In this document: piece after piece, positions 32,592 to 52,216 of the stretch
Layout of the letters: each line of letters begins with the position of its first letter
Numbering within the stretch: the stretch's first letter is position 1
DNA from: a virus
Lineage: Duplodnaviria; Caudoviricetes
Reading direction: 5' to 3' (one strand)
IMG/VR virus record: IMGVR_UViG_3300015214_000026
Coordinates: 96,001 to 160,000 of that record
DNA: 64,000 bases
Program-made: the position numbers and the translations under genes
Notes under the pieces: model-generated
What the model saw: the letters and a program-made list of their open reading frames with translations, nothing else
Told to the model about the DNA's origin: nothing
Databases searched by the model: none

Positions 32592-32861
32592 TTACGATGG
32601 ATATGGGTTATTATGTAATGACATGGCGTAACCAGTCATAGCCGCATCCATTAAATCATCGGTATAATAGGCGGTAGCTTCTCTACCATGCTTGTAATTA
32701 ACTCTATACTCATCAGTATTAGAAAGCCTAGTAATGGTCAGGCCCATTTCTCTAAGCTCTTTCTCAACTTCCTTAAATTTCTTATTGGCTAACTTTGCTT
32801 TAAATGCGTTCATGTTAACTACGTTGGAGGCAGTTTCATTAATATAACGTATATAATTCAT
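32592..32861 (-). CDS. Hypothetical protein with shared leader MNYIRYINETA
   Basis: 89 aa; TAATG-coupled to the upstream gene. Confidence 0.8.
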   Translation of the reverse strand: MNYIRYINETASNVVNMNAFKAKLANKKFKEVEKELREMGLTITRLSNTDEYRVNYKHGREATAYYTDDLMDAAMTGYAMSLHNNPYPS

Positions 32862-33928
32862 TATTTATCTCCGTATATAGCTTGATAACCTTCGTACCAG
32901 TAGGTCTTAACCAGCTCTTGTTCTTTTAAAGTAAGCTTATGCTTGGAATCATTTTTAAATAGAATACCCAATACCATTGGTATATATTTTGTGAGTACAG
33001 CGTTATTAAAATTAATCCTTTTTAAAAAATCTATTATATCTGCTTTAGTTAAATGCAAACGCCCTTCTATAATTCTAAAAATATCTTCTAAATAGTCTTC
33101 TGTTATGTATATCCAGTGTATAATATCAGAATATCGTACCTTATCCATAAGGTATATAAACTTAACAGAATGAGCTATTCTATAAAAAATCTTCCTCAGC
33201 TCTTCTACAAACTTAGGCTGCTTTTCCAATAAGTCCACCCAATTAATTTCGTTATCTTTATAGTCCATAAATTGATGGGCTTCGTCTTCGGAAGTGTCAA
33301 ACCAAAATTGATATTTCTTACCAGTTTTCTTATCTAGAACTATGTATAAAGGACCTTCACGATTATATACATCGAAGGCGTTATTTTCATCCGCTCTAGC
33401 AGTACACCATTTAGTATTAATTCCGAAATAGCAGGAGGCTTCTTTAGTATAGGGTATAACTACTTCTACTGTAGATGATTCATACAATTTCTTTGCAGCT
33501 TTATTCTTAAAGAACGATTCATCCTGCTCTTTAGTACGTCCGGCGGCTTCCTGATATTGATTTACTACATCAAATAATTCATCGTCATTCTTAATACGAT
33601 TAATATCTTTATGCTCGTAGCGTAATTTATTCATACGCTTTAATTTATCATAAGTCAATAGAGAAGCGGTTAGAGTAGGTAAATCTTGTTTAAATAAATA
33701 AAAAGATTTATTAGACCATTTGAGTATACCTTTAGTAATTATCCACTGTAAATATTGCTTGTTTTTAGTAGGATCAGCGTTGAGTATAAGCTTCCATATA
33801 AGGTCTCTATTTCTATCCGACGTTTCTACAAGATTACCGTATTTTTTGGATAAAATTTCCCATTTTTCTCGTAATATAGCTAATTTATCTTCTCTTGAAG
33901 CTTTCTCAAGATATCGAATATACCGCAT
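32861..33928 (-). CDS. ADPT/WCT-motif protein (possibly PcfJ-like) with leader MRYIRYLEKA
   Basis: ADPTKNKQYLQW, ASC.FG.NT.WCTA, GPLYIV and QFMD motifs; paralogue of 52231-53877. Confidence 0.7.
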   Translation of the reverse strand: MRYIRYLEKASREDKLAILREKWEILSKKYGNLVETSDRNRDLIWKLILNADPTKNKQYLQWIITKGILKWSNKSFYLFKQDLPTLTASLLTYDKLKRMNKLRYEHKDINRIKNDDELFDVVNQYQEAAGRTKEQDESFFKNKAAKKLYESSTVEVVIPYTKEASCYFGINTKWCTARADENNAFDVYNREGPLYIVLDKKTGKKYQFWFDTSEDEAHQFMDYKDNEINWVDLLEKQPKFVEELRKIFYRIAHSVKFIYLMDKVRYSDIIHWIYITEDYLEDIFRIIEGRLHLTKADIIDFLKRINFNNAVLTKYIPMVLGILFKNDSKHKLTLKEQELVKTYWYEGYQAIYGDK

Positions 33929-33937
33929 AGTAATTAC

Positions 33938-34414
33938 CTAGATTATCTGACCGCGACCACGGCCGGAACGGTCGTATTCTAAATCTGGTGTAGTAGTTTC
34001 ATATTCAACAAATACACGAGTTACAGGCTTAACATACTCGATACGATCTATTCTAGCGTAAAAACCGCTTTTAACTTCCGTATGATAAGAAGTAGCCATC
34101 TTTTTAGTAGAAGTATTTTGTCTGCGCCAAGGCTTAGACACCTTAATCTTTTCGTCTTTAATAAACTTCAAAGCAACATTCATAAATCTACCATCAGGAT
34201 CAGGTATTTCAAATTTAGCCGTAAAGGTTTTTACTTTGGTTTGATGGGCGTTAGGGTAGTCGCCATCATAAAACCCCTTCTTAACGTATCTTCGCGTACT
34301 ATCGTCTTCTGTATCAGCTAATACTTTAAAACCATTAGACAATAGGTGCTCTTTGAATCTAATAAACCTATTACCTTTAGGCGCAGCCGTTTCAATATAT
34401 CGAATATAATTCAT
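33938..34414 (-). CDS. Basic hypothetical protein with leader MNYIRYIETA
   Basis: 158 aa from ATG 34414. Confidence 0.8.
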   Translation of the reverse strand: MNYIRYIETAAPKGNRFIRFKEHLLSNGFKVLADTEDDSTRRYVKKGFYDGDYPNAHQTKVKTFTAKFEIPDPDGRFMNVALKFIKDEKIKVSKPWRRQNTSTKKMATSYHTEVKSGFYARIDRIEYVKPVTRVFVEYETTTPDLEYDRSGRGRGQII

Positions 34415-34542
34415 CAATCTGTCGCCTTCTTAGGAAGCCATTTAGGTTGACGGAGACCCTGCGCTTTAAACCATTCTGCCAGAGGTTGAGGTTCGGGAAA
34501 TCTACGTAGTTTACCGTAAACAGTCATTAGAAGCTCTTTCAT
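34414..34542 (-). pseudogene. Displaced original 3' end of topoisomerase IB, inside a 42-codon mini-ORF
   Basis: 34494-34414 encodes EPQPLAEWFKAQGLRQPKWLPKKATD*, 14/26 identical to and the same length as the present topoisomerase C-terminus. Confidence 0.8.
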
Positions 34543-34557
34543 AGATAGGACTTTAAA

Positions 34558-35316
34558 TTGACTAATGAAGAATTAAGAAAATTAATAGGTACTAAATATA
34601 AAACTAAACGCTCAGGTGTATGCAAAATAATTGATGTAATAACTATAAAATCAGGTAATAGGAATAGATCTAGAATAGTATTAAAATTTTTAAAAACAGG
34701 ATACATAAAAGTAACTACATATAGACAATTGATTGATGATGGTACTCATGGTGGGGTTTCTGATCCGTACTATCCTCGTGTTTGTGGGGTAGGTTTTATA
34801 GGCGAAGGTGATTATAATACTTCTTCCCATAGAAGGCTTTATGGATTGTGGCTATCTATGTTGAATAGAGCTTACAAACACCCTTCTTATACAGAAATAT
34901 CCGTTTGCTCAAGGTGGCTAAATTTTCAAAATTTCGCAAAAGATATACAAAAGAAACGTAATTGGAATACTCCTAATTTTGAATTAGATAAAGATTTAAG
35001 AGTTTTCAATTGTAAAATATATTCTCCTAAAACTACATCTTTCGTACCTAGAATTTTAAATGCTATGTGTAGGCAAGGTGGTAGAGGCTATTCTTATACA
35101 GACTGGGGTTATAGAGTAGTAACAACTATAAATAATAAACCAAAAAGTTTTGGGACATTTAAAACAAAAAAGAAAGCAAAACAAGTTTATATAAAAGTTA
35201 GAGCGGAGGCTATTTATAACGTGGCATTAAAGTATAAAACTCAATTACATAAGGAAGTTCGAGCTAATCTCTTAGATCGAGAAAAGCTCGAAATTTGGTT
35301 ACGTACTAAGCGCTAA
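34558..35316 (+). mobile_element. Free-standing HNH-type homing endonuclease gene, antisense to the operon
   Basis: Y..W..ML.R.Y, VC.RW.NFQNF, ELDKD, YSP.T..FVP..LN motifs; AP2-like C-terminus; only credible plus-strand gene in the late region. Confidence 0.85.
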
Positions 35317-37136
35317 TCCTTAGCTGTTGTAGGCACCCAGCGAGGCACACGAAGTCCTTGATCTTTAAACCATTTTATTAGATATGGCGTCTCAACGTAT
35401 GACTTGACCGTTGTTCTCCAAAGCGTAGCCCCTGTACCGGATTTATGCCCCAATAGAATAGCGATAGGGGTAAGAATCTTCTCGATAATAAACTGCTCAC
35501 CTTCCTTCTGCGACCTAGAAAGATTACCAGAAGCCTTTACAGAAAGATTAAATTTCTCTTTCTTCAATAGATCAAGCATAAGATTAGTACCACGAACACG
35601 ACGCATCTTATGTGGCCCGGCAGGGTATCCAGATTCTTTAAGGTACTGAATGTACGCAGCATATGTTAAAACAATAGGTTTTTTATTTTTGTTTTTATTA
35701 GGTACAGAAAAGACGAGATCAGTCTTTTTCTTTCCTGCCATAAGCTTCTCAAGATTCTGATAGACTCGCTTAGTAAGACCATCAGAAGGATCAACCTTAA
35801 TAATATGTTGCTGCTCCAATCCAGTTTTGCTTGCAGCCTTACCTTTGTATTTCAAAAATATACTATTTTTACGTAATGAAATATGTGTAGGTCTAAGAGA
35901 AATAGCTCCATACGTAGCTTCACCAGACTGTGAAGCTGCAGAAGTCTGTCTAGCACCTACGCGCATAGCAGTCATATAAATCATGACGGAAGCTGTAGCT
36001 CCCATCTTCTTTAATGGGTCTGGTGATGTAAGGTCCTTCTTCCATCTAGCTAATACAGAATTAATCTTACTAGTCACTTTCTGCGTATCAGAAGATATTT
36101 TAGCAGAAGATTTATTCAGATGCGATTCCGTATATACTCTAGTAATACCTGCTGCCACATCAGAAGTATACGTTAGATATCCACCTTCGCCAGTCTTAGG
36201 GTTATACCTAGCGGATAATTTAATATCTTTAGCATTACTAGGTATATTCTGAGCGATTGGTCGATCATCGCCTGTATAGAATTTAGGTTTACCTAACACC
36301 ATGCCTAATTTAAGCGGGATATTCTTCGGTACATTGGGTATTTTATGAATTTTATACCCTAGTTTAGTCATATGCTCGTAGGCATCTTGAATTTTAACAA
36401 CACTAGGATTTTTACTGGATATGTATCCAATAAGGTCTTTATCGTAGGACGCACCTAAATCTCTACGCATTTGCGCATATCTACGAGCGCGATCTAAGTT
36501 TTCACCACCCGCTCTACGCATTTCTACAATGATTTTATTTGGTACGCTTAGTACGTCTAGCTTGGCTTTCTTACCAGTAATGTCGGCTACCAATTCAGAG
36601 AGTTCTCTCTGTAGATCAACTATGTTATTCTTATTTCCAGAAGTCGAGCCATGAATGCGCTCTACAACTTTCTGAAAGTTACGGTAATATGCAGCACTAA
36701 TAGTAGCTGCGTGTTTCTTAGCCCGTTCTACATAATTAGCATTCTTAGTAGGATTCTCCAAGAATAGTACAGAAAATTTAAGCAAAGACACTTCATCAGT
36801 AGAAATATTAGGGTCCTCAACCATTACCCTAATAGAATCTTTAAGCGGCTTCGCAAACATCTTCATATTAGAAGGGTCAGAAGATGAAAATTTAAAGAAA
36901 TTGTCCGGTATAGCATAGTTTTTGAAAAATCTAGGATTAACTAAATCTCTCATTATAGCCGCATTTTGATGGGCGGATTTCTTACCTTCACCATTGCCCG
37001 CTAATTCAACTAATCCTAAAGCTAAAAGGAAAGCTCCTAATTTAGTAAATTGAGTGGGAGGCAAATTTGCTACCTCCACACTCAACATTGATTTCATGTA
37101 ATTTTTTAAATATGTACTTTTAGTATAGTTATTCAT
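35313..37136 (-). CDS. Type IB DNA topoisomerase with a long N-terminal extension
   Basis: Catalytic pentad in order: MRVG (R), YKGK (K), HKMRR (R), LGH (H), KSYV (Y); TYG..SLR..H motif. Confidence 0.85.
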   Translation of the reverse strand: MNNYTKSTYLKNYMKSMLSVEVANLPPTQFTKLGAFLLALGLVELAGNGEGKKSAHQNAAIMRDLVNPRFFKNYAIPDNFFKFSSSDPSNMKMFAKPLKDSIRVMVEDPNISTDEVSLLKFSVLFLENPTKNANYVERAKKHAATISAAYYRNFQKVVERIHGSTSGNKNNIVDLQRELSELVADITGKKAKLDVLSVPNKIIVEMRRAGGENLDRARRYAQMRRDLGASYDKDLIGYISSKNPSVVKIQDAYEHMTKLGYKIHKIPNVPKNIPLKLGMVLGKPKFYTGDDRPIAQNIPSNAKDIKLSARYNPKTGEGGYLTYTSDVAAGITRVYTESHLNKSSAKISSDTQKVTSKINSVLARWKKDLTSPDPLKKMGATASVMIYMTAMRVGARQTSAASQSGEATYGAISLRPTHISLRKNSIFLKYKGKAASKTGLEQQHIIKVDPSDGLTKRVYQNLEKLMAGKKKTDLVFSVPNKNKNKKPIVLTYAAYIQYLKESGYPAGPHKMRRVRGTNLMLDLLKKEKFNLSVKASGNLSRSQKEGEQFIIEKILTPIAILLGHKSGTGATLWRTTVKSYVETPYLIKWFKDQGLRVPRWVPTTAKD

Positions 37137-37171
37137 AGCAGCACTCAAATATCAGGAATATACGTAAAGAA

Positions 37172-40100
37172 TTACATCTTTGGACGGCTACGAGGACGCT
37201 TAAGTTTAAGTATTTCATCCTTAACGTCAACTAGATCACGTTTAATCTGCTCTATATCAATAGAACGGATAGTAGATAAATTACGAAGGTCTTCCATAGC
37301 TTCGCGAACGGATTTAAATATATTAATCCACATAGCTTCATTCTTACGAATATTTATTACGCCAGGGAACTTAGCTCTGTTACGTCCTAACCACGCTATA
37401 AATCTAGGATCGTGACTATTAGTATCAAACGCAAGAAGAACATCGGTTTCATTAACAATCCAATATGGATTAACAATTACCTTACCATTCTTCGCGGTTC
37501 CTAGCTTTTTACGCTGATCTAAGAAGAAGTTACGGAATTTCTGAAGATTAATCTGTTTAGTAAGCTGCATCGCCTTACCATCACGGATTTCTTCCATTTC
37601 TTCTTTCAGGGCCTCATAAGTTTTATCGGATATATGCATCTTGGAGTCGATAATATCCAATAGTTTTTCCGCTGCCGCCCAACTACGGAAGGACACGGAT
37701 GTAAATGGGTCGATACGATTCCAGCCATCAAGATTCTTTAGTTCCTTAATGTCTTCGTCAACAATCAATGCTGGCCAACTATTAAGAATACCAGCATAGA
37801 TTTCTACTTCATCCTTATCTTCTTCCTCGTTATCGAGGTTGTCTTCCAACATTTCGATAACTTCTTCTTCATCTTTCAGCTTAGTTTTATCAACCTTAGC
37901 TGTACCAGTAACCCCCAATGGATCGAATGATTCATTACGCCATTTGATAGGGTCTTTAACAGTCTTAGCGAATTCCTTATATCTAGAAGGCGCCGCAACA
38001 TGAACAGTGCCTTTCTTTAAGGAAACAGTTCTACCATTATAAAGCTGTACTTTAACAGCCTTCTTCATAGAAGCCTTAACAATAGCTGGACCAAATTCAG
38101 TATAGATAACTGTTCCAACCGCTACGTCATTATTACCAAGAACTGTAAACCCGTAATTATTAGGGTCTGGTGGAAGAGCATTACGAATAAATGGCACATA
38201 AACACGTTTAGAGCCTGGAATTTTATAAGTAGATTCCACTTCATACATAGCAAGCTGTATGAATTTATTGATATCCATGATATTACCTTTGCTATCAAGC
38301 AAATCTATATCATGTTCATGCTCCAATTTTTCTGCCATACGCCGCTTGGATTGCTTATTTAAAGCGTTTTCCCAATGAATATATGTTTTCCATGCCTGGA
38401 AATAAGGTTCTAAATCGTAATCTCTAGCATGGAAAATAAGTTGAAGATTCATCTTCAACATCTTCAATTCATCAAATTCATTGGATACCTGACGCCATTC
38501 CATACGACCTTCATAAGTAAGACGCGCATTAGAAATATATTTAGAAATAAGACGCGCTATCTTAACACCATCCAAAGTAGGTTGATTATTAGGAAGACGA
38601 GTCATTATCCAAACATGGCGAACCGAATCACGATTATACTTACCACGCGGATCAGGTCTATACATACGAGCACGGGCTTGCTTATGTTCACCGGGAGCCC
38701 ACACACTCTGCATACGGCAGATAAGAGAAGTCATCTGTAGGTTGAAGCCTTCACGCATACTTCCTTCTGTAGCGCAAAGGATAATATTGTTAGGGTTAGT
38801 TTCAAATTGCCGAACTACTTCTTCATTACCAGCGGTATAATGAAGAGATTTAGACGCAAATTTACTGTGTCGCATAAAGTGTTCTGCAGAAACTATATTC
38901 CATCCAAACACTATGATCTTATTATGAGGAAGATCATCTTTATGCTTTATAACATGCTCTTCAATAAGTTTATCAGTAAGCCGAACTTTAGGAGAAACCA
39001 AATCTTCTCCAGAAGGCTTACGTTCCCAAGCCATATATTGGTCATTAGAATCAGGAGCAACAAGGAACATTTCCACTTTTTGTAAATGAACCTTGGCAGC
39101 TGCTATAATGCGTGCTTCTTCTGCGTCGTCGCCTTCTTCTCCTTCGTCATCCTCGTCTTCATCTTCTTCGTCGTCATCATCGTCATCTTCTGATTTTATC
39201 TTCTTCTTAGATTTCTCTAGTTCTAGAAGAATAAGCTCCGCTTCTTGCATAAGAAGATTATAAAATTCATGCTGTAATGGAGTCATATTAGCAAACATGA
39301 CTTCATCATCCATTGCTGGAAGCATGTAAGCCCAATCTTCCTCATTCGCTTCGTGATAAGCCGTGGTAGCCTTCAACCTATCTTTAATCTTCTTGGCGTC
39401 TTCATCAGATTTGATAAGACCTTGGCTAAGACCGTATCTATCCGCGAAAGCCACAGGGTCATCACCAAATATATAAGGGGATATGGCTCTACCTTGACCA
39501 ACTAAGTCAGGAACGGTGTTAGCTACGATAGTACCCGACATAACGTCGCGATTATCTGCGTGTGAGAAAATCGCATAGCTATTTCTCGAACGGGCGGATT
39601 CAGGATTTTTAATCATATGGCTTTCGTCACCAGAAATAAATCTGATACCGAGAAGCTTTATAATAAGCATAAACTGAGTAGTAGGTATAGAAAACTCGCA
39701 AAACCCATCAACCAGATCAAGATCAGGGTATAGTTTACGCCTAGAAGCGAGTGAAGAATAACTACCGACAAGAATTGTATTCTTTGGGAGTTTTTGATAC
39801 CATTTCAGAAGTTTAGCAAAAGTATTAATACCAGAAATTCTAGACATACGCCTAAGAGTAATGGGTGTAAACGGTATAGCATTAATTTCACCCTTACAAA
39901 TCTGGTTGATTTCAGTAACAGTACCACGAATAAGATTAGCCTTGGTAAGGATCATAGGAATCGTCTTGGTATTAACGATACCGAAGATCGATTGCACAAT
40001 ACTAATAATGGTCTTGCCGCCGCCTGTGCTGACTGACTTAATAGACTGATGCGGCGATTTAATCGCCGAGGAAAGAATACGACCCTGATGCGGGAGTAGC

Positions 40101-41734
40101 CCTGTAAGACCACCCTTTCCTACTTTTATATTTGGAATATCGAAAGTTTTAATAGAGGGGTCGGGCTTGAATTTAGCTTGTTCTTCACGCCAAGCTTTAC
40201 GATAAGTATCGATGGTTTTTTCATCATACTTATCTATAGCTTGTAGGACATATTCTACGCCAATAAGACGATGAATAATACCTTGCGATTTCATTCTAGC
40301 GGGAAGTTTTAGAGCCTCTTTATCAGATTTACGCGCTACATTAAGATACTTAATAAGGGCTTTAAGGGCTTTAACTAATGGAATAAGGCCGTTTACTTCT
40401 TCAAGTTCTTCAAGATACCCACCACAAACGTGGTATAAGGTAACGTCATCTACATTGGCAGCGTTGGTAGCATTAATTATGTTTGTATAGATACGAATAG
40501 CAGGAAGATCACGAAGGATACGCTTCGCTTCTTCATCAGAAGTATATTTCTCAGCTTCACTTCCATCTATATCTTTTAACGATTCTGTGATAATAGAAGT
40601 AATGGGCGTCATTACCGAAGCTTTAAGCGGCGTAGACAAATAATTATATTCAGTAACAGGGTCAAATGGAGCTACATCACCTAGATCATACGTAGATAGA
40701 ATGCCGGTTGAAGTGGTATACGCTAGAATATCGTTTACCCAATCGACATAAATAATGGCATCGCCTAAGCCATGCTCATCGACTAGAAAATCGCGGCGAA
40801 ACACTCCATCTTCATCAATACAAGAGTTACTAGTTTTAATAAACTGCTCAACTGTATCTCTATTTGGTGGAATAAAAATAGGATTGCCAGAACCATGGAT
40901 AGCAAATCCAGCCTTATTCACCTTAGGGCGAATAGGGCCGAGCTTCAACATGGCATTCTTATGCGCAGACACTTTTCTAGGGTCTACGATTTTATTAAGT
41001 CGATTCTTAGTAAGACGTAGTGAGTTATAAACCCACAGATAAACTAAATAAGCAGAAAATTCATCAGAATCTATAACTTCTTTATAAACATCGGCTTCTA
41101 ACTCGATACCTAAAGTAAAATCCAGATTAGCTGTATGTGTATCAGAATTGTACTCTGGTGTTTTTATATATATTTTAAATTCTACAAAATCATCAAGCGG
41201 GGTTAGATACTTTTCTTTGAAAGTTTCAAGAGCGGGTGTCAGCGCCGTCATCACAGTTGGGCTGATATCCATATTATAGATATGCTGGAAAAAAGCTGAT
41301 AACGTAATCCCCTTACTAATATCTTTGGGGAAGAGCTTTATGACTCTTTCTACTATTTCTCCACCAATATTAAACAAAGATTCCGTAAATTCAATCGCAA
41401 TAGGTTTAGTTTTTCCATTGCCTGGCTTAACCATAGCAGTCTCACGAAGGCGATCTGCTGTAACTGGTTCTGCGTATGGGTTTAAGTCAAACCCAATTAC
41501 ATTGGCCATATCGATGGTAGAAAATTCTTCATTCATAGTACCATTAAGCAGCGATCCCATAATTCCAAGACGGAACAATGAGTTTGCGTTTAGTACTATG
41601 CCGTATAGATTCTTTTTCACCATTTCCATAGGGCTGGTGAATTTAGTCCCAACGTTTGGCCGACGAGCGGCCGTTTCAGGCAGATCAGTAGAAAAATCCG
41701 TCTCAAAGTTACGCTCAATGCTCGGCGAATCCAT
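37172..41734 (-). CDS. Large SNF2-family SF2 ATPase/helicase (~1520 aa)
   Basis: LLPHQ, TGGGKT, DESH.IKN, SGT, SPK, EG.NLQ, W.P...QA.AR..R motifs; GAGG RBS before ATG 41734. Confidence 0.9.
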   Translation of the reverse strand: MDSPSIERNFETDFSTDLPETAARRPNVGTKFTSPMEMVKKNLYGIVLNANSLFRLGIMGSLLNGTMNEEFSTIDMANVIGFDLNPYAEPVTADRLRETAMVKPGNGKTKPIAIEFTESLFNIGGEIVERVIKLFPKDISKGITLSAFFQHIYNMDISPTVMTALTPALETFKEKYLTPLDDFVEFKIYIKTPEYNSDTHTANLDFTLGIELEADVYKEVIDSDEFSAYLVYLWVYNSLRLTKNRLNKIVDPRKVSAHKNAMLKLGPIRPKVNKAGFAIHGSGNPIFIPPNRDTVEQFIKTSNSCIDEDGVFRRDFLVDEHGLGDAIIYVDWVNDILAYTTSTGILSTYDLGDVAPFDPVTEYNYLSTPLKASVMTPITSIITESLKDIDGSEAEKYTSDEEAKRILRDLPAIRIYTNIINATNAANVDDVTLYHVCGGYLEELEEVNGLIPLVKALKALIKYLNVARKSDKEALKLPARMKSQGIIHRLIGVEYVLQAIDKYDEKTIDTYRKAWREEQAKFKPDPSIKTFDIPNIKVGKGGLTGLLPHQGRILSSAIKSPHQSIKSVSTGGGKTIISIVQSIFGIVNTKTIPMILTKANLIRGTVTEINQICKGEINAIPFTPITLRRMSRISGINTFAKLLKWYQKLPKNTILVGSYSSLASRRKLYPDLDLVDGFCEFSIPTTQFMLIIKLLGIRFISGDESHMIKNPESARSRNSYAIFSHADNRDVMSGTIVANTVPDLVGQGRAISPYIFGDDPVAFADRYGLSQGLIKSDEDAKKIKDRLKATTAYHEANEEDWAYMLPAMDDEVMFANMTPLQHEFYNLLMQEAELILLELEKSKKKIKSEDDDDDDEEDEDEDDEGEEGDDAEEARIIAAAKVHLQKVEMFLVAPDSNDQYMAWERKPSGEDLVSPKVRLTDKLIEEHVIKHKDDLPHNKIIVFGWNIVSAEHFMRHSKFASKSLHYTAGNEEVVRQFETNPNNIILCATEGSMREGFNLQMTSLICRMQSVWAPGEHKQARARMYRPDPRGKYNRDSVRHVWIMTRLPNNQPTLDGVKIARLISKYISNARLTYEGRMEWRQVSNEFDELKMLKMNLQLIFHARDYDLEPYFQAWKTYIHWENALNKQSKRRMAEKLEHEHDIDLLDSKGNIMDINKFIQLAMYEVESTYKIPGSKRVYVPFIRNALPPDPNNYGFTVLGNNDVAVGTVIYTEFGPAIVKASMKKAVKVQLYNGRTVSLKKGTVHVAAPSRYKEFAKTVKDPIKWRNESFDPLGVTGTAKVDKTKLKDEEEVIEMLEDNLDNEEEDKDEVEIYAGILNSWPALIVDEDIKELKNLDGWNRIDPFTSVSFRSWAAAEKLLDIIDSKMHISDKTYEALKEEMEEIRDGKAMQLTKQINLQKFRNFFLDQRKKLGTAKNGKVIVNPYWIVNETDVLLAFDTNSHDPRFIAWLGRNRAKFPGVINIRKNEAMWINIFKSVREAMEDLRNLSTIRSIDIEQIKRDLVDVKDEILKLKRPRSRPKM

Positions 41735-41784
41735 GTTTTTAACCTCTATCAAATTCAATTTATGCTTTTGAGAATATCTCAAAA

Positions 41785-41969: not shown

Positions 41970-42398
41970 TTATAGCTCTGGAATTTCTCTAATATATTTT
42001 AGCTTTGTTTTTATTCTACCAATATCAGTATTAAATTTGGCTACATCTACCCAATCTCTAGGAGGATCTACTTTAAAAGTTTTACACAGCTGAATAAGTG
42101 ATTTAGCTAATTCAGATGTGGCTTCTACAGAAATAGGTAAGCCCAACAAATATGATTTAGTATAAGCTCTCATAGCTCTTTCTATATCACCACGAGTAGA
42201 AAGATTTAAAACATCATTAAATATACGGTTATTATTCTTATCTAAGATATTATTAGCTCTATTTAAAACACCCTCATAATAATTAATTACGCCTTCAATT
42301 ACATCTTGATAGTATTCTAAACTACCTTCTTCATCAATTGCGGCGGCATTTTCAATAGAACTTAATAAATTCTTAACCCGTTCAAATAAATCCGACAT
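41970..42398 (-). CDS. Hypothetical protein
   Basis: 142 aa; N-terminus ...LLSSIENAA resembles the shared leader. Confidence 0.75.
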   Translation of the reverse strand: MSDLFERVKNLLSSIENAAAIDEEGSLEYYQDVIEGVINYYEGVLNRANNILDKNNNRIFNDVLNLSTRGDIERAMRAYTKSYLLGLPISVEATSELAKSLIQLCKTFKVDPPRDWVDVAKFNTDIGRIKTKLKYIREIPEL

Positions 42399-43516: not shown

Positions 43517-45019
43517 CTAAACATCATCTACTGCGGTAGCTTCGGAAATTGTTTCTGTAGTAGGAGCAACTTCCTCTACGGTAGTTTCTTCGTCTTCGCT
43601 GTCCTGGCTTTCATCATACGGCATAGCTTCCAGAACTTTTTCTGTAACCTTACCCATGATTTCTACCATGGCATCCATATCCCCGTTATCCCAAGCAGAT
43701 ACCGCTTTATCTCCCGCGTCACCAGAAAGAGCTCGCATCATGGCACTAAGAAGTGCACCACGACCCTTTTTCTCTTTCTTTTTCTTAGCAATTTCTACTT
43801 CTTCAACAGGTTCAGAAAGGGATGCGTAATCAATAGAGAAAGCATCATCAAATACTTCTACTGAAGCAGATTCTAGGTATCCTTTAAATGGAACGTATTT
43901 CATTACTTCAAGCATGAAATACATAAGAGTACGTTCAAACTTCTTCTTATCTCTCTTTATCCAAGAGTCTATAAGCATACGACCTAAAGCGGAAGCCATG
44001 ATCTTGATAAATACAGCGATAAGTAACTTAATAATAGCTATATTACCGGGCCGTAGCGCTACTTCCGAACCTTCTATAAACGCTTCAGCATTTTCTACTG
44101 TGTAATCATCAAGATCGATTTCATACTTATAATCATCGTCGAACTCGTACTCTTTATATTTTTGAACATCAGATTTATAGTCAAAATCATTCTGCGGAAA
44201 CCAATCATTAAGAACCATTTTAACTATAGAAAATAGTATACGTTCAAAAGCGTTTTTATTCTTACGCTCCCAAGCGTTAAGAAGAGACTTACCAACAGCT
44301 CCACCGACAATCTTAACTAAGATACCTAATATGATCTTACCGATTATCTTGGAGTTAGCCGTTTCGGGTAGATACTTTCCGAAAGTAGTCAGAAAGGCGT
44401 CACCATCGCTGGTAAGAATAATACTAGCCAGTTCTTCAACAGTAACGGAGGCGGCTTCTGGTACAGTTATTCCATCGTCTTCATCTTTTCCTTCACCTTC
44501 TTCTTCATCGAAGTTAGGATCAGAATTGATATGCATAGATAAGAAATTATCTAAATCGTAGGCAAAAATACCATAGTTAGCCATATTTTCAGTGTTACCG
44601 AGCATTCCGGTATACACTTTCATAGCAAATTTATGCATTTCAGGGGTAGTTAAAACCCTGAAAGCCCTACCATCGCCGTCGATAGATACAATGCCACTAT
44701 TAGCAAGCTCGCTGTCAATAATGCCCGATCCACTATCTTCCAAATCATTGGTTTCGTATTCATCGCTGGCTACCTCACCATTCGCCAAATATTCATATGT
44801 ACTAATACTAGTAAATTCATAAGTTCCTAACGAGGAAAGTTCTTTACCTGTTTCAGTAAAAACATAACCAGCGCCTTCCATGACACTGGTAATGAAATCT
44901 ACGCTATCCTTATCAATATTAGAGAGAACCACATTTTGGTCAACACCATTAGAGGCAGTCGAAATCTCTACTAAAGCTTCTGGATAAGCATAGGATAAAA
45001 GTCTTTTTATATCAAACAT
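43517..45019 (-). CDS. Acidic internal-head candidate with three amphipathic helical repeats and many E-x-A motifs
   Basis: 500 aa; repeats centred on G..L..(A/S)W...(D/N)...FE. Confidence 0.7.
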   Translation of the reverse strand: MFDIKRLLSYAYPEALVEISTASNGVDQNVVLSNIDKDSVDFITSVMEGAGYVFTETGKELSSLGTYEFTSISTYEYLANGEVASDEYETNDLEDSGSGIIDSELANSGIVSIDGDGRAFRVLTTPEMHKFAMKVYTGMLGNTENMANYGIFAYDLDNFLSMHINSDPNFDEEEGEGKDEDDGITVPEAASVTVEELASIILTSDGDAFLTTFGKYLPETANSKIIGKIILGILVKIVGGAVGKSLLNAWERKNKNAFERILFSIVKMVLNDWFPQNDFDYKSDVQKYKEYEFDDDYKYEIDLDDYTVENAEAFIEGSEVALRPGNIAIIKLLIAVFIKIMASALGRMLIDSWIKRDKKKFERTLMYFMLEVMKYVPFKGYLESASVEVFDDAFSIDYASLSEPVEEVEIAKKKKEKKGRGALLSAMMRALSGDAGDKAVSAWDNGDMDAMVEIMGKVTEKVLEAMPYDESQDSEDEETTVEEVAPTTETISEATAVDDV

Positions 45020-45039
45020 AGGACTTCTCCTGACGTAGA

Positions 45040-45068: not shown

Positions 45069-45075
45069 ATAATTA

Positions 45076-45864: not shown

Positions 45865-45889
45865 TTTATTTACCTCTATGTTAAAGAAC

Positions 45890-47005
45890 TTAGTAGAATC
45901 GCCTAAAGCGATTATACCCTATCCTATTATTCAGGGTGTTAACCCCTAATCCAAGCGTGCCTATGTTACGAACACGCTTGTCTGTTTCATTTCCAGCTAT
46001 TTCACCCTTACCATTAGCTAAAATCGCAGATTTCTTTGCTACCGGTAATTGATCCATAACCGCATTATACCTGTCCAACAATTGGGACAAATAATCCGTT
46101 CTATTATAATTAAGTTGAGTGTTTAATCCTTGGAAATCAAACGCATTCAAACCTTCCGCTAAGAATCTAGATTCTAACGCATAAATAGCCGCAGCTATTG
46201 ATAAAAATCTATCTAACCCGCTAGGGAAATCATGTAACTTCCACAAAGTTATTTCTGGTGGTGAGGAATTAATACGCTTTACACCAGCAAGAACTGCTTG
46301 AATTAATTCAACATTATGCCATTGCAAAGAAGGATCAACTTCTATTAATTTAGCCTTATCCAACATAAGTTGGAGGGTATTAACTACATTAATAGTTTTA
46401 AAGTCTAGTATATAAAGAGGATGTGTTTCTGTATATGTTCCAGAAGCAGTAGTTATCCTATATACTATATTAAAAGGATCAAGCCATATATTCTTAACAA
46501 TAGTTAGTGGTGGTAGTACTATAGAAAACCTATAGCCATTGGAATTAGCGGAAACGGATGTTTGATTATTTAATGTAGTTTGCTGAACTTCTTCTCCAAA
46601 TGAATCAAAGATACGTACTTCGATATCCGCTTCATCGCTATTAGTTACAATGAAATCCTCTATATTTTCATCAGTAATATAATTAAAAAATACGCCGTTA
46701 GGGGCAAAAAACTCTGTATTATCAAATAAAGTAATAAGTTTATCTGTTATATACGTTCTTCCAGCAGAATCTGTTCCGTGGAATTGAATAGTCATGTCTT
46801 CCTTACCATTAGGAACAACATAATTAGTGGGTATAGTAAATACGGCATTCCACCTACTACCTACTTGTAAAGCGGGCTGAGACAATAAAGTATCGTCATC
46901 GGCAGTGTAAATAGTCCATAAAGGTGGCTGATTAAATACAGCCGGCGCTCCTTTATAGGAAAATTTAGTACCTATAGTATATTGCTTACCTTTATTAATT
47001 TCCAT
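45890..47005 (-). CDS. Putative neck/head-tail adaptor protein
   Basis: Ig-like N-terminus and helical C-terminus with INSSPP and F.F.G....L...R; weak family recognition. Confidence 0.45.
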   Translation of the reverse strand: MEINKGKQYTIGTKFSYKGAPAVFNQPPLWTIYTADDDTLLSQPALQVGSRWNAVFTIPTNYVVPNGKEDMTIQFHGTDSAGRTYITDKLITLFDNTEFFAPNGVFFNYITDENIEDFIVTNSDEADIEVRIFDSFGEEVQQTTLNNQTSVSANSNGYRFSIVLPPLTIVKNIWLDPFNIVYRITTASGTYTETHPLYILDFKTINVVNTLQLMLDKAKLIEVDPSLQWHNVELIQAVLAGVKRINSSPPEITLWKLHDFPSGLDRFLSIAAAIYALESRFLAEGLNAFDFQGLNTQLNYNRTDYLSQLLDRYNAVMDQLPVAKKSAILANGKGEIAGNETDKRVRNIGTLGLGVNTLNNRIGYNRFRRFY

Positions 47006-47019
47006 AATAAGACCACACC

Positions 47020-48375
47020 TTAAAGATGTTCTTTAAGCCATGAAGATAACTCTCTAGGCTTTATACTACTAAAAGATTTAGGCATAAAATTAGAATCTTT
47101 AACTAAAGATAAATTAATCGTATTACCAGTTACAAATCCATATATTTCAATTTTGTTATGAGTAACATCGGCATTTTCTACACCGTATAATATATGGTGC
47201 TCACATGGTTTTATGTCATTACCATCATAAACATAGGCTTTTTCAAATTTGTATTCTTTAGGCTTAAGATTCTTTTTAAGAAAGAAATCCAGAGAAGATT
47301 TCTTTATACTGGCAGTTTCAGATACTTTATTCAAAAATACCTTGGAATTTGCCAATTCAAGATTACACTTATTAAGCATAATCTTCGCTCTAGACAAAAT
47401 AGAAGGTTTTCCTATAGACGCCACCATAATAGTAGCAGCCGTAGGTATACAGCTTTCTAAATAATCTATATGAGAGAGAAGCTCTTCATGAGAACCTTCT
47501 TTACTTATGATATCAGCCTTTTCCAACTTTATTAGAGCTTTAAGAAGGTCCGTATCGTGTGAAGAATTAATAGAAATTTTCTCTTTCATAGAAATATTCT
47601 TTATTTTAGCGCTTCGGTCAATTGTAGATAAATAAGTAGCAGTTTCTGTAGATTGTTCATTTGTCTTAACTAAGGATTCCGCGATAATATCATCATCGTT
47701 TAGGTTCCCCTTAGCTTGTTTCATCATATCTTCATGTATCTTTTTCAGATATTCAATTTTAGCTCTACGCTTACGTTCTTCCTGTTCAGCTTTAAACTTA
47801 CGTTTCTCAGCTTCATTTTCAAAGTCTTGTTGGTCTTCTTCCGCTTCTATAGACCTAAGCTCATCTTCTACTTCCATAGTATGACGTTTGATGTTATCAC
47901 CAAACCCCGCAACTACAAAAGCAGCGGTAGAAGCAACTGGTGTACCTAATACTAAAGATAAAGCCATAGTGGCTAATAAAGTGATACCAGAAACCGCTAA
48001 TACCTGTCTTGCTCCATGAGCAGCCTTGTCTTTATCTAATTTAACTGCTTTAATGGTATTATCATACAGATTCTTTATCTGCTTATTTTCTAATCTTTCA
48101 ATCTTTCGTTCAAAAGAACGCTGCATATCGTCCAATGAACCAGACATAGCCTGTTTTACAGAATACCCATTCAATTTTAAGTAATTAACAGCCCTCTCTT
48201 TCTCGGCGGGAGATAAAGGCTTGTTACTTGTAATCTTATTACCAGAAACTCTTATCTTAGCTTTATTACTAGTAGTTTTATTATTACCTTGTATTTTCTT
48301 TTTTGACCTAGGATGCTGCTTTATGTAATCTTTTTTCTCACTTAAAGTAAGATTTTTCCACCAATCAGACAACAA
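47020..48375 (-). CDS. Hypothetical protein with a hydrophobic hairpin and coiled coil (possible ejected membrane protein)
   Basis: WW..L...EK..YI..HP.S N-terminus; hydrophobic aa ~125-158; ETAT, ELAN and ETAS motifs. Confidence 0.7.
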   Translation of the reverse strand: MLSDWWKNLTLSEKKDYIKQHPRSKKKIQGNNKTTSNKAKIRVSGNKITSNKPLSPAEKERAVNYLKLNGYSVKQAMSGSLDDMQRSFERKIERLENKQIKNLYDNTIKAVKLDKDKAAHGARQVLAVSGITLLATMALSLVLGTPVASTAAFVVAGFGDNIKRHTMEVEDELRSIEAEEDQQDFENEAEKRKFKAEQEERKRRAKIEYLKKIHEDMMKQAKGNLNDDDIIAESLVKTNEQSTETATYLSTIDRSAKIKNISMKEKISINSSHDTDLLKALIKLEKADIISKEGSHEELLSHIDYLESCIPTAATIMVASIGKPSILSRAKIMLNKCNLELANSKVFLNKVSETASIKKSSLDFFLKKNLKPKEYKFEKAYVYDGNDIKPCEHHILYGVENADVTHNKIEIYGFVTGNTINLSLVKDSNFMPKSFSSIKPRELSSWLKEHL

Positions 48376-48465
48376 AGTTCTCCAAATTATAACAATTTAA
48401 AAAGAAACTACACTTATACTCAAGAATTAGGATATTGTCATTGATAGATCATACTTAAAAACAAT

Positions 48466-48499
48466 AAGGGCGGTGAACCCTTGCGAGAACACCGCCCTT
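48466..48499 (-). terminator. Intrinsic terminator after the H1-like gene
   Basis: AAGGGCGGTG/CACCGCCCTT stem followed by ATTGTTTTT. Confidence 0.8.
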
Positions 48500-48535
48500 A
48501 CGTTACAGCCTGGGGAGGAGGAGGTCAGACTGTAA

Positions 48536-49093
48536 TTACATAGCCTTGCGCTTACGACCAGCGGTCTTCTTCGCAGCCGGACGACCGCGCTTCGCAGCGG
48601 GCTTCTTAGCAGCAGGCTTCTTAGCAGCAGTCTTCTTAGGGGCCGCCTTAGCCTTAGCCGGACGACCGCGCTTTCCAGCAGCCTTCTTAGCAGGAGCCTT
48701 CTTGGCAGCGGTCTTCTTCGCAGCCGGACGACCGCGCTTAGCGGTGGTCTTCTTAGCGGTCGACTTCTTGGCAGCAGTCTTGGCGCGACGACGGTGCTTA
48801 GCACGCTTCGAAGCCCAATACTTCTTCATGGCAGTCGAAATCTTCTTCTTGTGAGCAGCAGACTTCGGCTTATTACGAACAGCCTTGGAAATCTTCTTAC
48901 CTGCAGCCGTCTTCAAACGCTTCTTCTTCGCGGTAGCGCGACGCTTCTTCGACTGAGCCGGAGTTTCGTTAGCGAGCTTCGCCTTACGCTTCTTGGCAGC
49001 AGTCTTAGCGCGAGTCTTAGCCGCAGCAGAAGCGGGCTTGCGAGCTTCGCTCGTATCTTCGACCGCCTCAAAAACCAGTTCAAAATGTTCCAT
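48536..49093 (-). CDS. Histone H1-like Lys/Ala-rich DNA-condensing protein with three KRGRP AT-hook motifs
   Basis: AGGAG RBS before ATG 49093; KKPAA/KKTAA repeats; acidic 17-aa N-terminus. Confidence 0.85.
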   Translation of the reverse strand: MEHFELVFEAVEDTSEARKPASAAAKTRAKTAAKKRKAKLANETPAQSKKRRATAKKKRLKTAAGKKISKAVRNKPKSAAHKKKISTAMKKYWASKRAKHRRRAKTAAKKSTAKKTTAKRGRPAAKKTAAKKAPAKKAAGKRGRPAKAKAAPKKTAAKKPAAKKPAAKRGRPAAKKTAGRKRKAM

Positions 49094-49175
49094 TGTATTT
49101 CTCCTACTATCGATAGTATGGGTTAAATTATAAGAGGTAATCAAGATTCCTTGTAAAGATACCTCTCTACCTAAA

Positions 49176-49205
49176 AGAATTAGATTATCTAGAATCAAAT
49201 GTCAA
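49176..49205 (-). promoter_or_regulatory. Putative promoter TTGACA-17-TAATTCT for the H1-like gene
   Basis: Consensus -35 exactly 17 nt from the recurrent TAATTCT motif. Confidence 0.55.
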
Positions 49206-49328
49206 CAAAAATTACAAATTTTTCTAGTAATCCAAAACTAAATTTCATCGTATGTCCCCACCCAATTTTCAGAAAGGTTGTTCGCCAATAGAAGAAGTAA
49301 CCTGAAAAAAGTTAATGATTTCAATGAT

Positions 49329-49754
49329 CTACAGACGTGGAGCAGAATGAGGTGAGTTCGATATGGTTCTCAATTCACGTAGTATAACCCGAACGTCCCT
49401 ATTGAGTTCTTTCTGATAATTATTCAGATCGTCGAATCTACGATCCATTTCATTTACTTTAAATTGCTGTTGCGTAATTTGATTAGTAATAACTTTGGTT
49501 TGCTCTTCTATAGATTCTATCTGTTCGGTAGCTTTTTCTAAATTACGCACCACATTATTAAGAGATTGCTCAGTAACGTATTTTTGTTCAGCCACTGCTC
49601 TAACTATATAACTATCAACAAATGGTTTACCTATTACCCATATAATGCCGAATAAAACAGTTATCTTCGTAACATTATTAATTAACCAGCTGATAGCATT
49701 ATTTATAGTTATTTCACCTATAGCTACTTCTATGGATTTTAATACATTGGTCAT
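49329..49754 (-). CDS. Single-TM coiled-coil protein
   Basis: ITVLFGIIWVIG TM segment followed by heptads; N-terminus MTNVLKSIEVA. Confidence 0.7.
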   Translation of the reverse strand: MTNVLKSIEVAIGEITINNAISWLINNVTKITVLFGIIWVIGKPFVDSYIVRAVAEQKYVTEQSLNNVVRNLEKATEQIESIEEQTKVITNQITQQQFKVNEMDRRFDDLNNYQKELNRDVRVILRELRTISNSPHSAPRL

Positions 49755-49766
49755 AGCAAAAAGACC

Positions 49767-50990
49767 TTACTTCTGATAAGGATTAGAATGCTTATAATTA
49801 GTCAATGGTATATCGAATATTTTAAAATGATAGAATTTCTTTTCCATAGGCTGTAAAGCTCTTACATCAGCGGTTAATCCAAATACAGTACCACCTTCTG
49901 TAAATCTAGGCGTTAACGCGGAAACCTTCCACACCTTTCCGTATTTAGACTCCGTAATGTAACTTCCTTCTTTAATATCAATAGTGGGAGGAAGCTCCAT
50001 TGTTACATTCACGTTCCAGTCTAAAAATTCCTGCTCCCAACCTTGAGCTACTTCTGGAATTTGAGCCTTGTGGGGCTCTCTGTATGAGAATACTATTACC
50101 GCATGCGTAAATGTAGTTTTTGCTGAAAATTCTAGAATTAATCTAATAACTTCACCAGTCTCGTTCAATGTTTGAAGTGACTTAGCGGTTACTAAACCAT
50201 TATCGTTAGAAGAAGCCCATGTAAAAATATATTCATCAGGAGATATTACTTCCTGACCATTATATACATCAATTTTAAGAATATACAGCCATAATTTAGG
50301 TAGTTTTAAACTCCAAAATAATTTGCCATTAGGATTAACCGTAATCTTTGTGGGATTAGCAGTTTCATCTATATCCGCGTTTTCAGAATAGAATTTATAT
50401 ATGTTACTAGATTCCAGAACTACTCTATGGCCGCCATACAGATTATAGCCGTCAATAAAACCAGAACCCATACAAATAGGGCATTGAATAGCACGATCAG
50501 AGAATAAATTAAAAGGATCGGAGAAATCAGCTAAAGTATTAACTACTTCTTCTGGATCATTTATATCTTCTATTTGATCGCCAATATCATCCTCATTAAA
50601 AAGATGATCCGCTAAAGTTTTCTTTCTACTTCTTACGCCTTCGTCGTTTAATTGAGCCGCAAAACGATCAGGTTGTGTAGCGTCTTCGTATACAGAGTAT
50701 TTAGAGTTAGCGGATTGCTTTAAAGGCAGAGGATCAGTGAAAGAGGTTTTATTACCTTCACCGGGTTCAATATCTTGATTGAATGATTTAATAGCAGCAG
50801 TACATGAGCATGGTATAGAGCCTTGGTATTTATTCCAGAAATAGAAGCGCGGAGAATCCACTCTTAGAGAAGTTTCAAAGTGCTCTGCCTTGCTAATAGC
50901 ATAATTCTCTAAATGAACATTAGCTCTACCAGGCATATATCTGTTATTTGGAATACCTACGCGAGTATATGCTTTCCTACCTATTGTCAT
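49767..50990 (-). CDS. Putative head-closure/neck protein with split Zn ligands
   Basis: PCSC...CPICMGSGF..GY motif seen in myophage neck proteins; C-terminal YGKVWKV barrel. Confidence 0.5.
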   Translation of the reverse strand: MTIGRKAYTRVGIPNNRYMPGRANVHLENYAISKAEHFETSLRVDSPRFYFWNKYQGSIPCSCTAAIKSFNQDIEPGEGNKTSFTDPLPLKQSANSKYSVYEDATQPDRFAAQLNDEGVRSRKKTLADHLFNEDDIGDQIEDINDPEEVVNTLADFSDPFNLFSDRAIQCPICMGSGFIDGYNLYGGHRVVLESSNIYKFYSENADIDETANPTKITVNPNGKLFWSLKLPKLWLYILKIDVYNGQEVISPDEYIFTWASSNDNGLVTAKSLQTLNETGEVIRLILEFSAKTTFTHAVIVFSYREPHKAQIPEVAQGWEQEFLDWNVNVTMELPPTIDIKEGSYITESKYGKVWKVSALTPRFTEGGTVFGLTADVRALQPMEKKFYHFKIFDIPLTNYKHSNPYQK

Positions 50991-50992
50991 AG

Positions 50993-51337
50993 CTATTCCC
51001 TACGTAGAAATTTTAAATTAGTAGGAGGTATTACATCTGTGTATATACGTTCGTAGTCTACAGTTGATCGCTTTAATTTAGATTTATCTGGAATGGTTAC
51101 TTCCCAAATAGTAAACGTTTCATCATCTTCAAACTCATCGCCCAACCAATTCATTAAAGCATCTTCAAGGTCATCCACGGAAGGAAATAAAAATATACCC
51201 TTAGACTCATTTAATTTGGTTGCTCGTGGACCTGTTTGTGGCTTTAAACCAAACTTCTTTATACTACGGTCATTTGTAGCTGGAGAAGCGTGGTACATTT
51301 TTATAGTGGCTACTTCTAAAGCTTTAAGATACCCCAT
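50993..51337 (-). CDS. ADP-ribosyltransferase-fold protein (Tpt1/KptA-like) with leader MGYLKALEVA
   Basis: MYHAS....I...GL.P, GIFLF, YE..Y...IPP..L pattern. Confidence 0.55.
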   Translation of the reverse strand: MGYLKALEVATIKMYHASPATNDRSIKKFGLKPQTGPRATKLNESKGIFLFPSVDDLEDALMNWLGDEFEDDETFTIWEVTIPDKSKLKRSTVDYERIYTDVIPPTNLKFLRRE

Positions 51338-51759
51338 TATTTTAATACTTTCTCAAAATCATTAAAAGTTTGTTCATTTTTAAAAACTTTGTTCACTTCA
51401 TGCAAAGAATGTATAAAGTAATTTCTAGCGGATAAGTTTTTAAAACAAAGTTGATTATTTTTCATTACCGTGTCATTTGCGGGAAGGAATATGATTCCTT
51501 TACCGCTTGCTTTACTAAATTGCGATGGTACAATAAGGTCTGCAACAGCCCATCCCATAAGCCTATAGTATGGGATGGACATCTTATAAAACGTAGAATT
51601 AAAAACCAATTGATTAGTATATTTAGTATCTCGTATATATCCGGCCTTTTTAAAAAAGAAATATAAGTTACCTAAAAATTCATTAATCTTAGGTTCTAAA
51701 CTAGATATTTGTAAACTAAGAATACTGGATTGCTCTAAGGCTTTAAGATAGCTAATCAT
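51337..51759 (-). CDS. Hypothetical protein with leader MISYLKALEQS
   Basis: ATG 51759 overlaps the upstream stop. Confidence 0.7.
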   Translation of the reverse strand: MISYLKALEQSSILSLQISSLEPKINEFLGNLYFFFKKAGYIRDTKYTNQLVFNSTFYKMSIPYYRLMGWAVADLIVPSQFSKASGKGIIFLPANDTVMKNNQLCFKNLSARNYFIHSLHEVNKVFKNEQTFNDFEKVLK

Positions 51760-52216
51760 CGAGAGGTTCCACAATATGTCTAGAAGTATACAAATTAAAA
51801 TCTGGGAGCGGTGGAAGATTAGCTATATCAGCAGGAAATTCTGTAGATAGAGTAATATGTGGTTTATACGAAGGGAAATCCCAAGTAGCTCCAGCCTTTC
51901 TAGATTCTAAGAACAACTTTTCTAGAACTGGATGATACACTCGCATTATTAGTACGGTATCACCAAACTTTTCATATTTAAAATGCTTGGAGTATAGATT
52001 AACAGCTACGATCTTTGATTTAATATCAAGTATACGCTTAGTATACGTAGTTGTTATATGAAAACTATCTTGCTCTTTAAGACGCGGTATGTGGTTTTTA
52101 AAATGACTAGTTAATTTAGCTTTAGAAGTACGTGTTAAATGAACAGAAGCGTATGTTCCTGGCCAATTACTACGATCATCAGTTTTGGCCAATTCTAACA
52201 TCTCAATATACCGCAT
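51752..52216 (-). CDS. acb1: 2H phosphoesterase, Acb1/T4 gp57B-like anti-CBASS nuclease, with leader MRYIEMLELA
   Basis: Two HxT motifs (FHITTTY, KPHITLS) and GATWDFPSYKPHITL, close to the T4 57B C-terminal motif as recalled. Confidence 0.75.
   Translation of the reverse strand: MRYIEMLELAKTDDRSNWPGTYASVHLTRTSKAKLTSHFKNHIPRLKEQDSFHITTTYTKRILDIKSKIVAVNLYSKHFKYEKFGDTVLIMRVYHPVLEKLFLESRKAGATWDFPSYKPHITLSTEFPADIANLPPLPDFNLYTSRHIVEPLDD

Follow-up and report, generated by a model that had tools for sequence, protein, structure and literature searches.

Six minus-strand genes in a 64,000-nucleotide stretch of a viral contig (IMG/VR record IMGVR_UViG_3300015214_000026), together with one gene elsewhere in the same genome, start with a leader peptide of the consensus M-x-Y-[ILF]-x-x-[ILV]-E-x-[AS]-[AST]. 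This stretch, hereafter the window, comprises bases 96001-160000 of the 170,266-bp contig (37% G+C), and positions follow window numbering unless they are marked as genome positions. The leader is probably a lineage-specific prohead-targeting propeptide, a clade-specific counterpart of the capsid-targeting sequence (CTS) of phage T4. Its N-terminal half (M-x-Y-[ILF]-x-x-[ILV]) would bind the assembling core or scaffold, so that the attached protein would be trapped in the prohead, and its C-terminal half (E-x-[AS]-[AS]) would be the recognition motif of a maturation protease with the gp21 fold, which would clip off the tag. The mature cargo would remain in the head and probably pass into the host along with the DNA. 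Because such a tag is short and self-contained, cargo genes could be swapped freely among related phages. The initial annotation of the window had proposed an address tag that loads a swappable payload into heads, and all of the computational tests that we ran fit a T4-like but distinct tag, while packaging itself, from binding to the core through cleavage and its exact position to retention in the virion and injection, is what we infer.

The window carries the structural module of a contractile-tailed phage, including sheath and tube genes, and this module lies wholly on the minus strand. The portal, capsid, and protease are 30 to 46% identical to their counterparts in Rhizobium phages RHEph12 and RHph_N46, Vibrio phages vB_VcorM_GR7B and GR11A, PaBG, phiRSL1, Lu11, and Erwinia and Dickeya jumbo phages; they are nearest to the phiRSL1/PaBG/Lu11-type group, and the phage is therefore not T4-like. 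A DNA search with 7 kb against 50,697 deposited phage records gave no match and no close cultured relative. Our comparison set consisted of the window's genome (G000) and five relatives, G001 and L013 to L016, whose proteases are 55 to 81% identical.

The six strong leaders that the initial annotation had named lie exactly at minus-strand start codons (positions 32861, 33928, 34414, 51337, 51759, and 52216; Table 1) and form two clusters, A and B, both between the portal and head protease genes. A strict regular expression run over all six frames of the 170-kb genome gave 10 matches, 5 of them at the N termini of open reading frames (ORFs) in the two clusters. With a one-residue gap permitted, seven proteins had the motif directly after the initial Met, compared with 0.73 expected (first 30 residues, 300 shuffles). 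The seventh leader, MLYFDYLEKAA, belongs to a 314-amino-acid (aa) protein at genome position 12950, outside the window, for which Pfam and NCBIfam scans were uninformative. The DNA upstream of the leader genes is unrelated (4 to 12 of 25 bases identical), and identical leader residues are often encoded by different codons; conservation is therefore at the level of the peptide, as had been argued from the synonymous codons and as the upstream DNA bears out as well. The bodies behind the leaders are unrelated by BLASTP, as had been claimed, with one exception: residues 132-404 of a 548-aa protein align with residues 3-248 of the 355-aa cargo protein. Since the 355-like part aligns from residue 3, the internal leader copy of the 548-aa protein marks a gene fusion. 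This internal copy, FLKIAEIAS, had been noticed before but lies at 53458-53484, and the position given for it, 52231, is merely the end of its ORF. L013 encodes the N-domain of the 548-aa protein in a 151-aa gene of its own and has two 355-like paralogs with leaders at their N termini. One weaker candidate, in the 141-aa membrane protein starting at 49754, was rejected because it is not kept in G001, which reads MPNLIGEALG there and whose portal is 81% identical.

Two of the cargo proteins could be assigned. The 154-aa protein, which had been called a 2H nuclease, matches the Acb1 family (Pfam PF23474, E = 4.7e-16, 59.2 bits against a cutoff of 27), the match begins at residue 20, and the translation holds two H-x-T motifs, HITT and HITL. 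By this sequence match it belongs to the anti-CBASS nuclease family (CBASS, cyclic oligonucleotide-based antiphage signaling system). The initial annotation had taken the unknown cargoes as antidefense candidates; such a role is established for Acb1 alone, and by homology. An Acb1 gene is present in all six genomes and has the leader at its start in five of them (the window's genome and L013 to L016), and in L013 to L016 the leader-bearing Acb1 genes are within a few genes of the protease. In the sixth genome, G001, the leader of the Acb1 gene (L001:14394-14420, orthologous to window positions 52184-52216) is split by a 1-nucleotide frameshift within a T homopolymer: MGYF... begins at an ATG in one frame, and the annotated gene begins with MLELAR in another, while one extra T would give MGYFSMLELAR. 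Either a sequencing error in the homopolymer or a genuine frameshift would account for this split. In the literature, we found no paper tying Acb1 to capsid packaging. Two metagenomic proteins join these domains in single chains: P0241 (576 aa) is a natural cargo fusion with a 355-like domain followed by Acb1, and P0256 (922 aa) has an ART-like domain (ART, ADP-ribosyltransferase), with a weak PARP Pfam match, directly before Acb1.

The ART fold that had been suggested for the 114-aa protein was recovered in an AlphaFold2 (AF2) model (predicted local distance difference test [pLDDT] score of 79), in which residues 1-11 are coil and the domain begins at residue 12. The top Foldseek matches of the model were Tpt1/KptA (E = 2e-4, probability of 1.0, template modeling score of 0.51 to 0.57), followed by the ART domains of pertussis and cholera toxins, PARP, and DarT, and a weak profile match pointed to Tpt1 and DarT as well. 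The model indicates that the protein has an ADP-ribosyltransferase fold with Tpt1/KptA as its nearest relative. This domain spans only about 100 residues; across 87 sequences, H16 and E96, which may be catalytic, are nearly invariant. Among 890 relatives, most of the stand-alone proteins begin at the first strand (YHVT) and have no leader; a subset has other extensions of 12 to 20 residues of the type M-[KR]-x-x-[DE]-[LI]-[LF]-x-E, and others are domains in polyvalent proteins of 900 to 3200 residues, beside ART-PolyVal, GNAT, DUF5661, or Acb1 domains. For the 89-aa protein, the profile match to phrog_7884 begins at residue 25, and its homologs outside the clade thus have no leader. Sequence and model evidence together indicate that the tag is an add-on to the cargo, because the Acb1 and phrog_7884 matches begin after the tag, the ART-like relatives begin at the domain, and the leader is coil in the AF2 model. 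The 140-aa and 158-aa proteins had no family match, with Pfam, PHROG, and NCBIfam scans uninformative. What had been called a WCT domain in the 355-aa protein amounts to a conserved family: there was no Pfam, NCBIfam, or PDB match, the PHROG scan was uninformative, and the PDB profile search was empty.

The leader recurs in the five relatives, and the tagged proteins of the six genomes make up approximately 23 BLASTP-distinct families. In the close relative G001 (an IMG/VR contig of 173,848 bp; portal 81% identical), the head module has the same gene order, but the tagged genes differ. The 140-, 158-, and 355-aa genes are missing from the places that they occupy in the window, two new tagged genes (MGYFSKVLEVAG and MGYLKHLEKAF) flank the protease gene on either side, and the G001 orthologs of the 114-aa and 314-aa genes are adjacent to each other elsewhere in the genome. 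The ortholog of the 89-aa protein retains its leader with conservative substitutions (MNYLRWVKETAA). The set of cargoes thus differs between the window and this close relative, as it does in T4-type hyperplastic loci, and the gene content indicates that leader-bearing genes are gained and lost even among close relatives. An additional DUF1353 gene (149 aa; L001:12298-12747) lies between the portal and the 548-aa gene in G001 and is missing from the window. The more distant genomes L013 to L016, with proteases 72, 64, 61, and 55% identical, respectively, each carry 3 to 8 small tagged genes around the protease and ligase, and their leaders read M-x-Y-[LIF]-x-x-[LIVM], then 0 to 10 residues, and then E-x-A-[AS].

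In other lineages, homologs of the cargoes are found without the tag or with a different leader. Distant members of the 355 family on T4-like contigs start with MRYMQLVEY or MRYVDLLEE, where the leader has the T4 gp21 motif [LI]-x-E at its end, and two of these members share their contigs with genes for T4 gp13, sheath, and terminase. On contig L023, a 355-like gene adjoins an ART-like gene (hhalign probability of 97%), and both start with MR[FL]xEI. The ART-like proteins P0290 and P0287, both on short contigs, also bear T4-like leaders. The same cargo families with different leaders in each lineage are the pattern expected if the leader serves the head assembly machinery and not the cargo, and this natural swap opens the idea to direct testing.

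The end of the leader (hydrophobic-E-x-A-S) recurs in the N terminus of the protease and in residues 41-46 of the capsid protein. In its AF2 model (pLDDT of 82.5), the protease has a short N-terminal helix, a disordered region (residues 13-51) holding LIESAS, and then the core, whose best solved match is T4 gp21 (5jbl_A; Z score of 9.8, root mean square deviation of 2.2 Å over 124 residues); herpesvirus assemblins come next, with Z scores of approximately 7. The modeled fold places the prohead protease with gp21. At the sequence level, the protease had no Pfam or PDB match, and a PDB profile search gave spurious zinc finger matches to a Cys-rich insert, which at residues 191-209 has an invariant Cys-x2-Cys...Cys-x-His pattern (zinc ribbon-like). 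Across 30 protease homologs the N-terminal region is variable, and relatives down to approximately 55% identity keep hydrophobic-E-x-A-[SG]. Capsid residues 41-46 read [LIM]-[AVL]-E-[LI]-A-[SNQ], with E at position 43 in 75 of 113 homologs and A or S at position 45 in 82 of 113. Cleavage at a second capsid site, residues 67-72, would take off 19% of the protein, matching the loss of approximately 20% of the mass of the capsid protein reported for the distant relative PaBG, in which several virion proteins are processed (PMC7412058). As a general E-x-A site, RAERAS at 67-72 was rejected, since homologs keep only [AS]-[AS]-E-[RN]. Within the first 60 residues, the end motif was found in 12 of 27 head module genes versus 13 of 202 other genes (Fisher P = 1e-6). 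By their sequences, the data fit a protease that would cut at or beside the E-x-A-[AS] motif, and a cut after the Glu (as in T4, phiKZ, and SPN3US) would fit as well as one at A-[AS] (as in assemblins).

The ip loci of T-even phages are the textbook case of tagged internal head proteins. Mullaney and Black reportedly described in 1996 how the T4 CTS of IPI, IPII, IPIII, and Alt is removed by the prohead protease gp21. The propeptides of the T4 internal proteins have 10 to 19 residues and target the proteins to the core, with residues 4 and 7 involved in targeting and residues 8 and 10 in processing, and gp21 itself has LIE near its N terminus (PMC9026906); the T-even internal proteins are diverse antirestriction proteins with only the CTS in common (PMC3012670). 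The system in the window resembles this one in that a short N-terminal peptide is common to otherwise unrelated, fast-changing proteins, an aromatic/hydrophobic, putatively targeting half is followed by a Glu-containing, putatively processing half, a gp21-fold protease has a similar site near its own N terminus, and an ADP-ribosyltransferase-type enzyme (Alt in T4) is among the cargo. It differs in its phage lineage (the phiRSL1/PaBG/Lu11-type capsid and portal group), in the conserved end E-x-[AS]-[AS] with a spacer of 0 to 10 residues, in being known from sequence alone, and in the presence of Acb1, a protein not described among the internal proteins of T4. The leader system would act in the manner of the T4 CTS without belonging to it, since its lineage and its consensus are different and the T4 cleavage rule fits only one of the seven leaders; this agrees with the earlier view that the tag is distinct from that of T4. 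The principle is known from T-even phages, and the system is less new than had first been supposed.

Two further phage systems and one class of proteins are comparable. In phiKZ, 201phi2-1, and SPN3US, propeptides of head and ejection proteins are cut at [SAG]-x-E by gp175/gp245 (PMC5694885, PMC10052503), so that one motif serves for the processing of many internal head proteins, as it would here; paralogs there have identical N termini, and their propeptides are thought to target the prohead. However, those propeptides are mostly longer than 100 residues and belong to paralog families (PMC5694885), whereas the leaders here have 8 to 25 residues and are on unrelated single-domain enzymes. In the Dar system of phage P1 (DarA, Hdf, DarB, and Ulx), antidefense proteins enter the heads as these assemble and are then injected (PMC9024508, PMC12810830), and, as in P1, a large helicase-type protein is among the head module genes. 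P1 loading, in contrast, follows an ordered hierarchy of protein-protein contacts with no common short tag known. The same effector domains (ART type, Acb1/2H, and GNAT) occur in polyvalent proteins but are strung together there in one giant protein, whereas here the domains are encoded by separate small genes, each with a tag of its own. Iyer, Burroughs, Anand, de Souza, and Aravind reportedly proposed in 2017 that the polyvalent proteins of phages and conjugative elements enter the host with the DNA and blunt its defenses.

The shared end motif of the leader, the protease, and the capsid protein would also be expected if the leader were a zymogen-like propeptide that controls activity or timing without any packaging, with the cargo staying cytoplasmic until the active prohead protease removes the propeptide and switches the cargo on. 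The proximity of Acb1 to the protease in four relatives agrees with this, and since, according to a preprint from 2026, CBASS is triggered by the T4 prohead protease itself (PMC12991175), coupling Acb1 to the protease would make sense. We nevertheless consider such a role unlikely. The aromatic/hydrophobic half of the leader, which corresponds to the targeting half in T4 (PMC9026906), is as conserved as the cleavage half; a coil of 8 to 11 residues is unlikely to inhibit seven unrelated folds; and the cargo types (ART domain, Acb1, and polyvalent protein domains) are typical of delivered effectors. There is still less to favor a tag for some other partner, such as a modifying enzyme of the type that acts on ribosomally synthesized and posttranslationally modified peptides, a chaperone, or a membrane or export route, given that the only radical S-adenosylmethionine (SAM) gene in the genome is QueE-like, approximately 95 kb away, and of the 7-deazaguanine pathway, that the tagged genes cluster in the head module, that the end motif is common to the capsid protein and the protease, and that the tag has no signal peptide-like hydrophobic core. 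Although the three cluster A leaders are very alike (MNYIRYI and MRYIRYL) and tandem small genes often arise through duplication, it is highly improbable that the shared start is a functionless by-product of duplicated or recombined 5' gene ends or of a nucleic acid signal for translation initiation, because the codons differ synonymously, the upstream DNA and the protein bodies are unrelated, the motif is retained, with spacers of variable length, in relatives with as little as 55% protease identity and in about 23 families, and orthologous leaders change via conservative substitutions.

Several observations weigh against the prohead-targeting propeptide. The tagged 314-aa gene is far from the head module in the window's genome. 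The T4 I/L-x-E rule fits only the 89-aa protein (INE), the other leaders reading YLE, YIE, ALE, or MLE, and the T4 cut site thus cannot be carried over. The capsid motif at 41-46 could be kept for structural reasons, and the site at 67-72, which is the better fit to the 20% loss in PaBG, is not E-x-A in most homologs. The phage of the window and its close relatives are known from sequence alone. No MxY leader was found around the protease in the cultured distant relatives Vibrio GR11A and Rhizobium RHph_N46, so that there is no experimental system at hand; in Lu11, only two genes in the protease region have an M...LA.AA start. Finally, CBASS is reportedly triggered late, at the time of prohead protease activity (PMC12991175), so that it is not obvious what a phage would gain from injecting Acb1.

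We put forward only tentatively, as doubtful, the more specific proposal that a non-T4 lineage preloads active Acb1 and an ART-type enzyme into its capsid through a portable, roughly 10-residue tag and then injects both. A bolder version would have the tag additionally couple Acb1 to the prohead protease, the reported CBASS trigger. If this proposal is true, the host would face anti-CBASS and ADP-ribosylating activities as soon as infection begins, and the tag could load arbitrary proteins into the heads of non-T4 phages. If the broader reading of the leader as a prohead-targeting propeptide is right, Acb1 would be added to the counterdefense enzymes that may be prepackaged, and tag-based head loading of such enzymes would be a general strategy of large myophages and not a T-even peculiarity. 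The tag would also provide a simple sequence rule for finding candidate injected effectors among the unknown genes of this marine clade. For engineering of phage protein delivery, it would offer a second, sequence-distinct tag and protease pair.

Table 1. Leader-bearing putative cargo genes and other head module features of the window
Feature	Position	Strand	Evidence and motifs
Major capsid protein (355 aa)	26295..27362	-	phrog_2522, E = 8e-61; LIEIAG at residues 41-46, RAERAS at residues 67-72
494-aa acidic protein, scaffold/core candidate	28132..29616	-	Position (between protease and capsid genes) and composition
Head maturation protease (262 aa)	29815..30603	-	phrog_18299, E = 4.5e-69; LIESAS at residues 41-46
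89-aa cargo gene	32592..32861	-	Leader MNYIRYINETAS at 32826-32861
355-aa cargo gene	32861..33928	-	Leader MRYIRYLEKAS at 33896-33928; invariant DPT...W and G..T.WCT
158-aa cargo gene	33938..34414	-	Leader MNYIRYIETAA at 34382-34414
Topoisomerase IB, possible long-spacer leader	35313..37148	-	Pfam Topoisom_I, E = 1.4e-13; ...LSVEVAN at residues 23-29
1536-aa SNF2-type helicase in head module	37172..41782	-	Pfam SNF2-rel_dom and Helicase_C; PETAAR near N terminus
142-aa head module protein	41970..42398	-	N-terminal helix, then SIENAAA (residues 14-20)
500-aa head module protein	43517..45019	-	LVEISTA at residues 16-22; YLESAS at residues 381-386
114-aa cargo gene, predicted ART fold	50993..51337	-	Leader MGYLKALEVAT at 51305-51337
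140-aa cargo gene	51337..51759	-	Leader MISYLKALEQSS at 51724-51759
154-aa Acb1 (2H phosphoesterase, anti-CBASS family)	51752..52216	-	Leader MRYIEMLELAK at 52184-52216
548-aa fusion	52231..53877	-	N-domain, then internal leader-like AETAS-FLKIAEIAS (53458-53499), then 355-like domain
Portal protein (759 aa)	53867..56146	-	phrog_16240, E = 6e-128; directly upstream of cluster B

Among the other head module genes, the 494-aa protein has one E-x-A-S site, compared with several in its G001 ortholog, and its only family match is to a PHROG labeled "ATPase." The weak leader match that had been noted in topoisomerase IB is plausible as a long-spacer leader: the G001 ortholog starts with MSNYKDF... 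and has ...ESMEVAS at the equivalent place, and this weak evidence hints that the enzyme may carry such a leader. The PETAAR site of the SNF2-type helicase is kept in G001, and packaging of this protein in the head is speculative. Topoisomerase IB, the helicase (together 35313-41782), and an NAD-dependent ligase (30608-32434) are all encoded within the head module; the topoisomerase and the helicase have E-[VT]-A-type sites close to their N termini, and the ligase of Rhizobium phage RHph_N46 begins with ...SLLETAAP. By analogy with P1 DarB or the poxvirus topoisomerase, these three proteins may be packaged enzymes. The 142-aa protein has a homolog in L016 with MVELAAE at the equivalent place, and the G001 ortholog of the 500-aa protein has LVEVSTA and YMESAS.

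Also within the head module, on the minus strand at 48536-49198, is a Lys/Ala-rich, histone H1-like protein with AKKxAAKK repeats, which is kept in G001, has no family match, and is a candidate DNA-binding internal head protein. The minus-strand operon is broken by a lone plus-strand ORF of 252 aa (34558-35316) that separates leader cluster A from the topoisomerase gene; this ORF has no equivalent there in G001 and no Pfam match, and it may be a mobile (homing-type) insertion. Outside the window, on the minus strand at genome position G000:C1:85175-85441, an 88-aa protein has an N terminus (...TIVQKALESAA) that resembles the N-terminal helix of the protease with an E-S-A-A site added, and by this likeness it may represent a second type of tag. 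The QueE-like radical-SAM gene, also on the minus strand (G000:C1:33217-34077), points by its sequence to a 7-deazaguanine modification of the phage DNA.

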